From Naegleria gruberi (Eukaryota), in assembly GCA_000004985.1 (NCBI GenBank), contig GG738895.1: a stretch of 64,000 bases of DNA. The stretch is one strand, 5' to 3'. Under the pieces are notes generated by a model that saw only the letters and a program-made list of their open reading frames with translations, was not told where the DNA came from and did not search any database. Positions 4,022 through 63,092 of the stretch are shown piece by piece. The translations under genes were made by a program, and so were the position numbers. The number at the start of each line of letters is the position of its first letter. Positions within the stretch are counted from its first letter, which is position 1.

Positions 4022-4223
4022 ACCGTAGACAAGTATTGTAAAATTGATAAAATCTATTCGTTAATCCAATACTGACAAGTAAATCCAAACTTGGACAAAT
4101 TGTTTGTATCATCATTACCATCCATCAAATGTCTTTACAGCTTCCAATTTGCCTTCCTTTTTCTACAGTTTTTTCCACACATTCAGTCAACCAGATCAGA
4201 ACCGTTCATCTCACTCAAAAAAA

Positions 4224-4799
4224 ATGAAACCATTCTTCGCCCTTCTCATTCTCCTCCTCATCCAACAACTTGTTTCCTGCCAATCCATCACCAAACAAAC
4301 CTATTACACTGAAGTCAATTGTGTTGGTGATATTTACACGACCATGTTCCTCGATAGTGGTTCAGCTTGCACATCGAAAGGATCAACTACTTGTAATGTG
4401 ATTACAATTTCTGGTCGTCAAGTTTACTTTACACAGGAATGTACCTCTGAAGTTCCACCTACACCAACCACTTTCACTGATGTCATTGCTTACACATACA
4501 AGAATGGTTCTTCTTGTAATGGGCAACTGAGATCTGCACAGGTCATTCCAATGGGAAAATGCATTATCGAATATGGTACCACTTATTATGCTTATTATGA
4601 TGCAACTGGATTCAAGACTTATTATTATGATAATGCTTGCAAAAGCAAAATGTTCACCACATCATTGTTTTTGAATACTTGTTTGAATGGTAATGTAAAG
4701 TACTCTTCTTTGGGAGGAAGAAATGCAGCCTCTTTGGAAACAAGTGCATCTTTGGGTGTGATTGTGCTAAGTGTATTGTTTAGTTTGGTTTCTTTCTAG
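4224..4799 (+). CDS. Small secreted Cys-rich protein with a hydrophobic C-terminal tail (GPI-anchor-like)
   Basis: ATG at 4224 is preceded by an A-tract. MKPFFALLILLLIQQLVSC looks like a signal peptide. The protein has multiple Cys and a C-terminal SASLGVIVLSVLFSLVSF. No family was recognised. Confidence 0.5.
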   Translation: MKPFFALLILLLIQQLVSCQSITKQTYYTEVNCVGDIYTTMFLDSGSACTSKGSTTCNVITISGRQVYFTQECTSEVPPTPTTFTDVIAYTYKNGSSCNGQLRSAQVIPMGKCIIEYGTTYYAYYDATGFKTYYYDNACKSKMFTTSLFLNTCLNGNVKYSSLGGRNAASLETSASLGVIVLSVLFSLVSF

Positions 4800-4866
4800 T
4801 TAGTTTAATAAAACTAAATATTTCCAAATATGAGCTCTTTGAAATTCATAAAAACAACAAAAAAAA

Positions 4867-5444
4867 ATGTCTCAACAATCACAACAAGATTCATCATGGT
4901 TGGACTCTATGTTTATGGATCCTTTTTTAGGTGAGTATCAAAGGCTACCATTATTTACTGATTATCATCATCATTCCATAATTTTCGGAATTTGTTTAAA
5001 TTTCTATGATCACAACTTGTATTCGGAATTCATGATTTGAAAAACAAAATATGATTGATATTATTTGTAGGCTGTGCATATGAACCTGAAACTTCAATTG
5101 AAAACAAACCACCTCCAAGAAAATTACCACCTCTCAATGAACCAAATCAAAAGCCTCATCTTTCCATCTCTCACACCAATGAAGTGGTGAATATTTACTT
5201 TGATTTTAATGATACTGAGTGGACTAAACATGATGTTCATATTGATATTGATGATTTACATCACATCTTGTCCATTTCAAATATTAACAAGGCTAAACCA
5301 AGCTTTCAACGAAAACTTCATCTTCCTAAATATTTGAATACTAAAGAATCAAAGGCTAAATTTGCTGATGGATTTGTTGTCATTACATTCAAGAAGACTA
5401 TCAACTTGGAGCAGGCAACACCTAGAAAGGTTCCTTTGGAATAA
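4867..5444 (+). CDS. Small heat-shock protein-like (alpha-crystallin/HSP20 domain); 2 exons (4867..4930, 5071..5444)
   Basis: The A-tract+ATG at 4867 opens MSQQSQQDSSWLDSMFMDPFL, which ends at a GTGAGT donor (4931). The acceptor TTTGTAG ends at 5070 and joins in frame to ORF 5055..5444. The C-terminal FQRKLHLPKYLNTKESKAKFADGFVVITFKK matches the ACD pattern F.R...LP......A.f.dGvL.i..pK. Confidence 0.6.
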
Positions 5445-5566
5445 TTGTAAATCTTTCTTTTTGTAAATATTAAATTATAATTTATACAATAATTGTAACA
5501 CAACATATTAGACTGACAAGAGTAATTGAGAGTAGCTCATTAACATGATAAAACAAGCAAAAAAAA

Positions 5567-60300: not shown

Positions 60301-60320
60301 TTTGCAAAGCAAATGGATGT

Positions 60321-61418
60321 TTATAGCATGGTTTTTAGAGTGGCAACAGCATAGAGGAATGGAAAGAGAAGGTCATCATCAGAGCACTCTTCTTTGGAGC
60401 TTAATTCAAAATATTGAACTTTGGTTGTGTGAATTGTTTTTTGTTGAGGCTCTGGCTCGACCATTTTTAGAAAATTGTAAATTTCAAGTCTTGTTACTTG
60501 ATGATCGAGATCTGATTTCAATCCGAGTAAGAGGAAACATCTATCATTGATATTGTAATCTGAAATATCTTTGACTGTCATTTCGTGATAAATTTCAATC
60601 ATTTCCTCAAATGATTTATGACTATTCAAATCAAAACAATACACAAAAACATTAGCTCTCGAATAAACAGATTTGAATAGCGATAGATATGTTTGATTTC
60701 CACATGTATCCCAAATCTTGAATGCAAATTCCGTCCCACTTCCATAAAGGTAATGCTTGTCAATTACTGGGAAAGTTATTGAGGGTGTATAATTTTCCGA
60801 AAATGGTAATTGATTAAAAGCTCTATCAATCAAAGTGGATTTACCACACCCTGATGACCCAACAAATATGTATTGGGCACATTGAGGCAATTCAACATCC
60901 TCATCTATTACAAATCTCTTCAGCAAGACATTTTTAACATTTTCATAACTTTCCATATCAGAAAACATGTACAACATTGGACTTTTTCTCCTCAAATCCT
61001 TCCACAGAACTTCAAATCTGGTCCAATACATTAAAAATCTCTTTGAAACTCGTTGCATTCTCCCTATACTTTCCATATCCAAAAATTGTAAAATGTGTAA
61101 AATTATTTCATGAGGAAAATTCGTCAACCAACCATCCTTCTCCTCACCCTGATTGAAATACTCATCATTGCCTCCATATCCTCTCCTAATTCCATTAAAA
61201 ATTCCTATCGGAAGCAATTCTACATCCGAAACAATAGTAGAAAGAATAGATTTCCTCTTGAATCCTCTTGGTAATTCCAACACGGGAAAATGTAGGGATT
61301 TTCCTGTAGAATAAAGTAAATTTTCAGATTGTTCACGGGAGGGGATTTTATTTTCATCTCTTGCTTGGTGATTCAGAGATGATGATGAGGGCGTCTCTGT
61401 TGATGTTTGTTGTCCCAT
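60321..61418 (-). CDS. MG-start + F-box + Rab-like small GTPase fusion protein (copy 2)
   Basis: MGQQTS fits the myristoylation consensus. The F-box reads FPHEIILHILQFLDMESIGRMQRVSKRFLMYW. The GTPase motifs are G1 GSSGCGKS, G3 WDTCGNQTY, G4 GLKSDL and G5 ELSSKE. There is no C-terminal Cys. Confidence 0.75.
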   Translation of the reverse strand: MGQQTSTETPSSSSLNHQARDENKIPSREQSENLLYSTGKSLHFPVLELPRGFKRKSILSTIVSDVELLPIGIFNGIRRGYGGNDEYFNQGEEKDGWLTNFPHEIILHILQFLDMESIGRMQRVSKRFLMYWTRFEVLWKDLRRKSPMLYMFSDMESYENVKNVLLKRFVIDEDVELPQCAQYIFVGSSGCGKSTLIDRAFNQLPFSENYTPSITFPVIDKHYLYGSGTEFAFKIWDTCGNQTYLSLFKSVYSRANVFVYCFDLNSHKSFEEMIEIYHEMTVKDISDYNINDRCFLLLGLKSDLDHQVTRLEIYNFLKMVEPEPQQKTIHTTKVQYFELSSKEECSDDDLLFPFLYAVATLKTML

Positions 61419-61521
61419 TTTTTTATGTTGATTGGTTTACAAAATATGAAATAGTTATGATTGTAATAGTCCAGAAAAGATTTTCAATCACAATATCGAT
61501 TATTGAATTTATTGGTACAAT

Positions 61522-62382
61522 TTATCGTTGATCTACAGTTGCTCTTTGAATCAACATGATATCATCCTCATCATCTTCCATTCCTTCATCATCCAAATCC
61601 TGATTACTAATCAATACATATTTTGATTCAACAATAGGTGTTGCACCAATATGAGCTTCATGAGATTTACCCTCAATTGATGTGGAACTTTCTTCCTTAT
61701 TTCTGAAAATGTGAATCAAATAACTACCAATAATATACATTGGAATGCAACCTAAAATACATAATCCACACGAAACACCCAAGAATGCAGCTCCCATTTG
61801 CAATAATCCACTCTTTGTTGCATCATTTTGGTCATTAACACTTGATTTAATGGTTGGATTTGAAATTTGAACAATTAATGCAAGACTCACTGAACCCAAT
61901 CCAATCAATAACAAACTACTCAATCCAATCCAAAAACACAAATGCAATGAACAATACAAATTATAAGTTCTCTGTTTTTGAAACCAGTGACGAAGTAAAA
62001 TGTGTTGATCTTCATTCATTTGTGGATTGCTCTTCAACATTTCACGTCTCTGTTTCAAAGTTCTTTCCTGTGAGAAGAGCATGAGAGAAAATACGAAACA
62101 AGCAATTCCACAAAAAGTTAGAGAACCAGCTGTAGATGTTACATCATTTTGATTCGGAGAAGAAACGGGACGAAATAGTTTGTGATTCTAATAAAAATAA
62201 TTGATCATCTACGAACCTGTTAAATGTTGAGTAACGACAAACGCAAGCGGTCCACTTCTTGTTATTGAATAATTCTCCAAAGTCATTTCCAATGCAAAGT
62301 TCGTCACTCCGATACCAAACATTAATAAACCAGCCAACAACAAGAAGATTTTGGTTGCTAAAAACAAGTATCGTCTTCTCAT
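61522..62382 (-). CDS. Hypothetical four-pass membrane protein with acidic C-terminus; 2 exons (62217..62382, 61522..62129)
   Basis: A-tract+ATG at 62382 gives MRRRYLFLATKIFLLLAGLLMFGIGV... in a frame not shown in the ORF track. The GTTCGT donor is at 62216 and the acceptor CTACAG ends at 62130 (87-nt intron). This joins in frame to ...GSLTFCGIACFVFSLMLFSQE... of ORF 61522..62082. Confidence 0.6.
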
Positions 62383-63092
62383 TTTTTCTTATGTAATTAT
62401 TGAAATTGGTTTGACAAGTGATGCCTCCACTGAAATCCCAACTCAACTGTAGTGTGTCATTATTCTTAATATTTTGAACATATTTCAAGCGCCAAAATCG
62501 AACCATTAAGCAATTAAAAAGTTCATCAACGCGCTAAGGAATCTTCGCAAACCGCAGATAAAAAATTATCCAAACACATTTTCTCTCAAATAAGGAATTT
62601 TTTCGAGTTTTTGCCAAACAAGTAGAGTTTGATTCAAGTTGGAAGTTGTGATAACCTGTAGTCTAACATTCATTTCCCGCATTTTTTCAACTCGACAGAA
62701 GAACAGTGTTGTTCCTTTCATGACTTTGTTACTCACACAATTTTCCTTCTGAAAAAGTTCAAATTATTAATGCTAGGAGTAACGACACTCAACCTAGATA
62801 ACAAATAACCTTCTCCTTTATATATTATCCAATATGCTCAATGACCTTTTTCCAAGCCAATATTGTTGTCGTTGGAAGATGAGACAAATACCAGTGCGCT
62901 TTGCGAAAAAGTCATCACACAGTGGTTTTGAAAATCGAATCTTTTTCCACTCACAAAAAAAACAACACAAACCCGAAAATACCACTTGGTTGCTTCATAC
63001 AATATTCATTGCTGCTGCTTCAGTTTTGTTGATATTTGAATCAATCACTCTTTGTTGTTTATTTTAATAACTATACTATTGTACTATAAACT

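Follow-up and report, generated by a model that had tools for sequence, protein, structure and literature searches.

Sense-strand A-tracts abutting start codons in a 64-kb window of Naegleria gruberi DNA: a candidate extreme start-codon context

A stretch of 64,000 nucleotides (nt) from contig GG738895.1 of Naegleria gruberi, referred to here as the window, was analysed with respect to an uninterrupted run of adenines, the A-tract, which lies on the sense strand and directly abuts the ATG of most of its genes. The window has a GC content of 33% and harbors tightly packed eukaryote-type genes on both strands. It is nuclear DNA of N. gruberi, a free-living heterolobosean amoeba, since the kinase open reading frame (ORF) at 23095-25389 matches a predicted protein of this species at 100% identity (and the orthologues of Naegleria lovaniensis and Naegleria fowleri at about 40%) and both RPB9 (42140-41736) and RPL28 (42542-42922) are identical to N. 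gruberi proteins. The gene total of approximately 41-45 used below is our own estimate derived from ORFs rather than an annotated number. Intergenic spacers measure 31-204 nt, and the ATGs of divergent neighbors are 141-204 nt apart. In two tandem arrangements, the stop codon is separated from the next ATG by 31 nt (33578-33614, plus strand) and 67 nt (4797-4869, plus strand), and therefore the first gene's 3' end formation and the second gene's promoter must overlap coding sequence.

A sequence-only reading of this DNA had listed 25 start codons, 15 on the plus and 10 on the minus strand, as being preceded by runs of 6-10 A, and had attributed such a tract to most genes. Each of the 25 coordinates is the A of an ATG with an A run directly 5' of it. 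In order of position, the runs measure 7, 8, 8, 8, 5, 7, 9, 10, 7, 7, 6, 7, 8, 6 and 9 nt on the plus strand and 5, 9, 7, 7, 8, 8, 9, 6, 6 and 5 nt on the minus strand; the proposed length range thus holds at 22 of the 25 sites and fails at 12688, 16088 and 62382, which have only A5. Two A5 starts located just beyond the range of that reading, 1704 (minus) and 2069 (plus), were added. With these, 27 tract starts among approximately 41-45 genes (about 60-65%) justify the wording "most genes".

The tract is linked to the start codon. Both strands together contain 2,632 ATGs, 31 of which have at least five A directly upstream, and 27 of these 31 sites are plausible gene starts; those at 42357 (minus), 45581 (minus), 49717 (plus) and 62682 (minus) are probably not. 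An ORF of at least 100 codons is opened by 60-100% of the ATGs with 6-10 A upstream and by 50% of those with exactly five, compared with about 10% (7-19%) for ATGs preceded by 0-4 A. The string AAAAAAATG (A6ATG) was counted 23 times, versus 7.89 +/- 3.10 in 100 dinucleotide shuffles, and because this count exceeds all shuffles (maximum 19) chance is excluded. Exact contact with an ATG is made by 23 of 54 sense-strand A runs of at least 7 nt, and when the A of the ATG is included in the run, TG follows immediately in 18 of 28 runs of at least 8 nt.

The individual tracts are given here with coordinates that span the run and the ATG. On the plus strand, an A5 at 2064-2071 precedes the second in-frame ATG of an F-box/GRF zinc-finger ORF, an A7 at 32071-32080 the second in-frame ATG of a 500-codon ORF, and an A9 at 23086-23097 the third in-frame ATG of the protein kinase ORF. 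ORFs of 191, 434, 432, 495 and 727 codons begin behind the A7 at 4217-4226, the A8 at 5559-5569, the A8 at 7014-7024, the A7 at 27960-27969 and the A8 at 47453-47463, respectively. Further plus-strand tracts belong to an EPL1-domain gene of 982 codons (A5, 12683-12690), a rhodanese-domain gene (A7, 22071-22080), a DEAD-box gene whose ATG lies 31 nt past the upstream stop codon (A6, 33606-33614), an F-box/Ras-family GTPase gene (A7, 34677-34686) and a dienelactone hydrolase gene (A9, 56403-56414). Minus-strand tracts are found at the starts of a peptidase M20 gene (A5, 1702-1709; ORF 307-1704), an ORF of 122 codons (A5, 16086-16093), a DUF4116 gene of 386 codons (A7, 31662-31671), RPB9 (A8, 42138-42148, at the start of the annotated protein), a second DEAD-box gene (A8, 46558-46568) and an F-box/Ras-family GTPase paralogue (A6, 61416-61424).

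Two divergent pairs have one tract for each member. The A9 at 26777-26788 (minus, exon 1 of a tubulin-family gene) is head-to-head with the A10 at 26911-26923 (plus, copy A of a SPRY-domain gene, with a further A7 run at 26896-26902), at an ATG-to-ATG distance of 141 nt. The A9 at 53411-53422 (minus, copy B of the SPRY-domain gene, of common origin with the gene starting at 26921) is likewise head-to-head with the A6 at 53576-53584 (plus, a leucine-rich repeat (LRR) gene), at 168 nt. On the basis of this arrangement, remnants of a retrogene poly(A) tail and terminators of an upstream gene were both ruled out as identities of the tract.

Short ORFs follow four of the 25 starts listed earlier. 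In three cases, a GT...AG intron connects the short ORF to the next long one, namely 4867 (A8, 4859-4869, plus; a first exon with a GTGAGT...TAG intron before ORF 5055-5444), 56207 (A6, 56205-56213, minus; a first exon with a GTGAGT...AAG intron before the F-box ORF 55100-56062) and 62382 (A5, 62380-62387, minus; the first exon of a membrane-protein-like gene, followed by ORF 61522-62187). The fourth, 30393 (A7, 30391-30400, minus), opens an F-box-like ORF (30205-30393) with an in-frame TGA after 32 codons. This TGA ('LRLV*IRNWNE') falls within the F-box motif and the reading frame goes on past it; the ORF may be a pseudogene or reflect a sequencing error or a recoding event.

Aligned on 41 putative starts of the window, the frequency of A on the sense strand is 0.73-0.90 from -1 to -6 and 0.32-0.42 in the flanks. 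The Kullback-Leibler (KL) divergence is 0.5-1.1 bits per position, with a mean of 0.77 bits over -6 to -1, and these values support, by a wide margin, the claim that the preference is stronger than a generic Kozak-like one. Divergence is maximal at -3, where A reaches 0.90, and the signal fades past -7; the A at -3 is nearly invariant, also being present in genes without a tract, and positions -1 to -7 are mostly A. Downstream positions are weakly constrained, with no +4 G preference and with UCU/UCA as a frequent second codon.

It is hardly credible that base composition or mutation (AT-rich intergenic DNA, replication slippage), or the picking of starts by eye, produced this pattern. The 33% GC genome would favor such a view, and the sequence-only reading admittedly chose some starts by their tract, but the excess over dinucleotide shuffles and the sharp rise of A above its flank contradict it, as do three observations presented below: independent NCBI annotations of N. 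fowleri give the same pattern, orthologous starts in different genera retain the tract amid diverged flanks, and the motif is depleted from coding sequence relative to synonymous shuffles.

Two N. fowleri loci (43 kb in total) with NCBI gene models provided 22 annotated starts. At least five A precede 11 of these 22, A is found at -3 in all 22, and the mean KL divergence over -6 to -1 is 0.67 bits. Conversely, all 11 AAAAAATG sites in the 43 kb are annotated start codons. Conservation at orthologous starts extends beyond the genus. RPB9 from six heterolobosean sources retains a tract of A6-A9 against the ATG; it is A8 in N. gruberi, A7 in N. fowleri, A9 in Willaertia magna, and A6 and A7 in two environmental relatives. 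RPB9 protein identity is 72-79% (measured for N. fowleri and one environmental relative), and the 200 nt upstream are unalignable between N. gruberi, N. fowleri and one environmental relative, save for the tract and the ATG. The kinase tract is A9, A7 and A6 in N. gruberi, N. fowleri and N. lovaniensis, respectively, and that of a mitochondrial carrier is also kept (A8/A7), the N. lovaniensis orthologue included. The Willaertia locus that was read has a tract at RPB9 and at one other gene, and AHA1 is without a tract in both species examined.

The region of RPB9, RPL28 and the peptidase S49 gene is present on two N. fowleri contigs (GCA_008403515.1; VFQX01000018 and VFQX01000016), and into one copy a retroelement ORF that encodes reverse transcriptase, RNase H and endonuclease domains has been inserted. 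Searches for relatives of RPB9 and RPL28 returned genomic loci and one environmental contig of 523 nt (ENA ERZ27237200), and metagenome scans with RPL28 gave no match. The contig encodes a Naegleria-like RPB9 and begins 14 nt upstream of the ATG (AAAATATAAAAAAA-ATG), which would imply a very short leader if the contig represents a transcript. Exact-protein look-ups for transcript contigs of N. gruberi genes yielded genomic contigs at most.

Genome-wide support comes from the KozakExplorer preprint (10.64898/2026.06.25.734688), in which N. lovaniensis is among the highest Kozak Strength Index (KSI) values of 2,282 eukaryotic genomes (0.403), the medians being 0.187 for fungi and 0.074 for Excavata. 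A genome-wide logo without enrichment, the observation on which the sequence-only reading would have foundered, is thus not what this sister species presents. The remark in KozakExplorer was all that literature searches yielded on Kozak context, untranslated regions (UTRs), transcription start sites (TSSs) or rapid amplification of cDNA ends in Naegleria.

Five loci provided 106 kb of coding sequence from long ORFs, in which exclusion from gene bodies was assessed. On the sense strand, TG follows none of 83 A runs of at least 6 nt and 13 of 242 runs of exactly five; this count treats 2069, 23095 and 32078, which are non-first in-frame ATGs, as starts. On the antisense strand, for which that decision has no effect, the corresponding numbers are 0 of 42 and 15 of 189. 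Synonymous-codon shuffling predicts 9.6 sense and 7.2 antisense occurrences, and zero was reached in 0 of 500 sense and 1 of 500 antisense shuffles; the antisense depletion is marginal in a conditional test (P ~0.03).

These data also bear on the proposal that the tracts are generic nucleosome-excluding poly(dA:dT) promoter elements of the yeast kind, whose proximity to the ATG is incidental to a compact genome. We regard this as very unlikely. Promoters are indeed short in this compact genome, and A runs and T runs of at least 7 nt are both above background upstream of genes. Elements of that kind are, however, independent of orientation and distance, whereas the tract occupies the sense strand and touches the ATG in the proportions given above, divergent genes do not share a tract but have one each, and most tracts, at 5-10 nt, are below the typical nucleosome-excluding length. 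Moreover, gene bodies lack specifically the combination of A5 and ATG, not A runs as such.

The association is also of practical consequence for gene models. The sequence-only reading had used the tract to choose start codons inside longer ORFs, a practice that matches the annotated start of RPB9 and recovers a conserved N-terminus in N. lovaniensis that was missed by the annotation. In the latter case, the A7-ATG at 17319 (minus; locus L004, 17209-17319) opens an N-terminus, MIQSPPFTRSQLDD, that matches the zf-B-box orthologue of N. fowleri; the ORF is interrupted after 37 codons, and the annotation starts at a later ATG. A frameshift, an intron or an assembly error could account for the break. 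The NCBI/JGI model of the N. gruberi kinase (738 aa) begins at 23173, 26 codons downstream of the A9-ATG at 23095. Given that the orthologues of N. fowleri and N. lovaniensis begin at A-tract ATGs (A7 and A6) with similar MSS/MAS N-termini, the N. gruberi model is probably truncated N-terminally by 26 codons; the alignment of the three N-termini speaks neither for nor against the longer protein.

The composition of the DNA upstream of the tract resembles that of a leader. G drops to 3-10% and the GC skew is negative from about 15 nt upstream of the tract to the ATG, and ATG itself is absent from about 10 nt upstream of the tract to the start, as well as between -20 and -11. Symmetrical composition and near-background ATG density are regained about 15-20 nt upstream of the tract (about -16 to -21). 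Of 44 runs, 37 are preceded by C or T. No TATA-like box was found at a fixed distance upstream of the tracts, where TATAWW has no peak; WTAAAW shows a weak excess 11-20 nt upstream (9, against a mean of about 3.4 in the other bins). A role of the tract as a splice-leader acceptor was ruled out, since G, and thus AG, is depleted upstream of it.

Where no tract touches the start codon, an A7-A10 run on the sense strand often lies 8-130 nt upstream, and the DNA from this run to the start is devoid of ATG. The plus-strand detached runs are an A7 at 8954-8960 (ATG-free for 70 nt to the start at 9031), an A8 at 11582-11589 (17 nt to 11607), an A7 at 18229-18235 (102 nt to 18338, a short-chain dehydrogenase), an A10 at 19590-19599 (57 nt to 19657, an SNF-family transporter), an A9 at 43191-43199 (53 nt to 43253, peptidase S49) and an A8 at 62955-62962 (130 nt to 63093). 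On the minus strand, they comprise an A9 at 39335-39343 (8 nt to the start at 39326 of a gene of 1,133 codons), an A7 at 40920-40926 (64 nt, ATG-free, to 40855) and an A9 at 51911-51919 (27 nt to the ATG at 51883 of an 86-codon, signal-peptide-like ORF). In the window, 9 of 31 non-abutting A runs of at least 7 nt lead without an intervening ATG to the first ATG of an ORF of at least 100 codons. The same is true of 6 of 54 T runs, about one third of the proportion for A runs, and of 2.2% of all ATGs; in other species, the numbers are 10 of 58 A runs and 4 of 70 T runs. Together with the antisense absence, the detached runs suggest a further function that concerns the DNA or the TSS.

RPL28 is the only apparent exception to the rule of ATG-free gaps. 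An A9 run followed by 'tacaaaaa' (42443-42459, plus) lies upstream of its start at 42542, and the gap is probably an 82-nt 5'UTR intron (42460-42541, GTAAGT...CTAG). Removal of this putative intron would delete two upstream ATGs and put AAAAA against the ATG, and a context rebuilt by splicing in this way would be as expected of a signal that acts at the RNA level. In N. fowleri, RPL28 (VFQX contig locus L011, 10001-10462) is interrupted after codon 3 by an intron of 54 nt, and an A7 run lies 18 nt upstream. The position of the RPL28 intron therefore differs between the two species, being putatively in the 5'UTR in N. gruberi.

The detached runs are central to an alternative in which the tract is mainly, or additionally, a core promoter of the initiator type, with RNA polymerase II (Pol II) starting in or just upstream of the sense A run. 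Coding would then begin at once in about 60% of genes, leaders would measure approximately 5-25 nt, and adjacency to the ATG would reflect a minimal leader or both roles. The very short tandem and divergent spacers and the excess of ATG-free paths from A runs over T runs are consistent with this view, as are the background values that ATG density and G/C symmetry regain within about 15-20 nt, the preceding C or T, and the weak WTAAAW enrichment. Absence of the motif from both strands of gene bodies would fit avoidance of cryptic initiation, comparable to the cryptic AT-rich promoters of Giardia (PMC1885649). As would be expected of an initiator, the 27 abutting tracts lie next to a start codon and the detached runs precede AUG-free gaps of 8-130 nt. 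On the other hand, the sharp TATA-like element at a fixed distance is missing, the profile peaks at -3 as it does for a ribosomal context, the antisense depletion is marginal and T runs are likewise somewhat enriched upstream of genes. Furthermore, because the zone depleted of G and free of ATG reaches about 10-15 nt beyond the tract, many leaders probably begin upstream of the tract and not in it. An initiator role is plausibly the best account of the detached tracts, the sharp 5' limit of the asymmetry and the both-strand depletion in gene bodies; as an explanation of the tract as a whole we consider it possible though rather doubtful. Comparably tentative, and slightly more so, is the extended proposal of a dual-purpose element in Naegleria and related Vahlkampfiidae, which would fix the Pol II start and form nearly the whole leader as a cap-proximal oligo(A) of about 5-25 nt, with translation tuned to oligo(A)-AUG and with A5+ATG selected out of gene bodies on both strands.

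The two copies of the SPRY-domain gene are of interest in this context. They form an inverted duplicate (26898-27833, plus; 52501-53436, minus) with 93% identity over 936 nt, and their homology extends from an A7 run about 24-26 nt upstream of the ATG to 1-2 nt past the stop codon, with unalignable flanks. The 5' limit of homology at the A7 run (-24 to -26) is compatible with an initiator at this position. The pair suggests gene conversion or a duplication unit that consisted of leader and coding sequence. Retroposition was ruled out as its origin, as homology stops at the stop codon and there is no poly(A).

We favor, with a probability of about 0.6, the view that the tract is an RNA-level start-codon signal, namely the homopolymeric extreme of an A-rich Kozak-type context within short, G-poor, AUG-free leaders. 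The peak at -3, the strict contact with the ATG, the sense orientation, the flank that resembles a leader and the retention at orthologous starts all fit this reading best. Transcription of the tract, shortness of the leaders and an effect on start-codon recognition are what we infer from the DNA sequence. Where the tract abuts the ATG, it would sit in a very short, G-poor leader without upstream AUGs, probably about 10-25 nt in length. It would keep the nucleotides just 5' of the AUG, those in the exit channel of the small ribosomal subunit, unstructured and provide the preferred A at -3 and adjoining positions; with these two properties, the first AUG after the cap could be recognized efficiently despite a short leader that is otherwise prone to leaky scanning. 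A -3 purine and an A-rich upstream context are established in yeast and many protists. Ribosomal proteins of the 40S exit channel touch nucleotides upstream of the AUG, which matters most for AUGs near the cap (PMC10201367), and short leaders raise leaky scanning (PMC3177215).

Several points weigh against this interpretation. A pure context signal leaves unexplained both the detached A7-A10 runs 8-130 nt upstream and the absence of the motif from the antisense strand of coding regions. In addition, the count of starts in the window depends on our ORF-based gene list, and the predictors behind the N. fowleri annotation may have learned the context themselves.

A-rich initiation contexts are already known, and in the 2026 preprint Naegleria, represented by N. 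lovaniensis, ranks among the strongest (10.64898/2026.06.25.734688). The near-exclusivity of A5+ATG to start codons, its purging from gene bodies and the detached runs that precede AUG-free leaders were not found in the searchable literature. The closest relatives of the tract are the contexts of Saccharomyces cerevisiae (AAAAAAAUGUCU-like) and of Dictyostelium and Plasmodium (AAAAUG), which share the excess of A 5' of the AUG, the -3 peak, the lack of a +4 G preference and the frequent UCU/UCA second codon. In comparison with these, the Naegleria tract is a near-homopolymer of 5-10 A in about 60% of genes, reaches to -7 or -8, stands far above a flank of 32-42% A and is essentially exclusive to start codons.

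Giardia lamblia has an AT-rich initiator and 5'UTRs of a few to about 25 nt, and its intragenic AT-rich patches act as cryptic promoters (PMC1885649). The A/T-rich element directly upstream of the start, the compact protist genome and the tiny intergenic regions are common to both. The Giardia elements are degenerate A/T mixtures with mapped TSSs, whereas the Naegleria tract is pure A, confined to the sense strand and known from sequence, and is not accompanied by a clear second AT-rich box at about 30 bp upstream. The mammalian translation initiator of short 5'UTRs (TISU) is a single AUG-spanning element that serves transcription as well as cap-proximal translation initiation on very short leaders (PMC2518114). 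Its consensus, SAASAUGGCGGC, extends past the AUG and is found in a small fraction of mammalian genes, unlike the Naegleria element with its little-constrained downstream positions; identity with TISU was ruled out by the pure-A upstream part and the lack of a GCG preference at +4 to +6.

Post-replicative mRNAs of poxviruses have non-templated 5' poly(A) leaders; A-rich leaders lower the need for eIF4F, and binding of the poly(A)-binding protein (PABP) requires about 12 A. These leaders resemble the Naegleria tract in the A run directly before the AUG and in the presumed benefit of an unstructured leader. A PABP-binding or poxvirus-type leader does not fit, as the tract is genome-encoded and its 5-10 nt compare with a requirement of about 12 A.

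Other features of the window are noted for completeness. Six dispersed transfer RNA (tRNA) genes, for Ala (11303-11375), Thr (31801-31874), Leu (39819-39898), Gly (45360-45430), Asn (52314-52386) and Lys (57323-57395), occupy short intergenic gaps, several at most 100-200 nt from the starts of protein genes, and the tRNA-Thr gene has an A7 run about 66 nt upstream. An LRR gene (57696-59141, plus) contains 14 tandem units of 72 nt at 57945-59180, which encode leucine-rich repeats of 24 residues and are 68-86% identical to the reference copy. Three pairs of genes were grouped by common Pfam domains and may be paralogues: the DEAD-box genes at 33612-34388 (plus) and 45766-46560 (minus), the F-box/Ras-GTPase genes at 34684-35775 (plus) and 60321-61418 (minus), and the LRR genes at 53582-55018 (plus) and 57696-59141 (plus). 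Both DEAD-box ORFs have the N-terminal helicase domain only, and the two share a 65-nt inverted DNA match (72% complementary).

With these tracts, Naegleria appears at the eukaryotic extreme of start-context strength. An ATG with at least five A upstream is a nearly diagnostic marker of start codons in this genus (27 of 31 sites here and 11 of 11 in N. fowleri) and can be used to correct gene models, and the tract is suited to expression constructs in Naegleria, where genetic tools are immature, including the pathogen N. fowleri. If the tract also sets the TSS, Naegleria would represent a free-living, non-reduced case of a promoter combined with a minimal leader, an arrangement so far known mostly from parasites such as Giardia, and would offer a natural system for the study of cap-proximal initiation on oligo(A) leaders.

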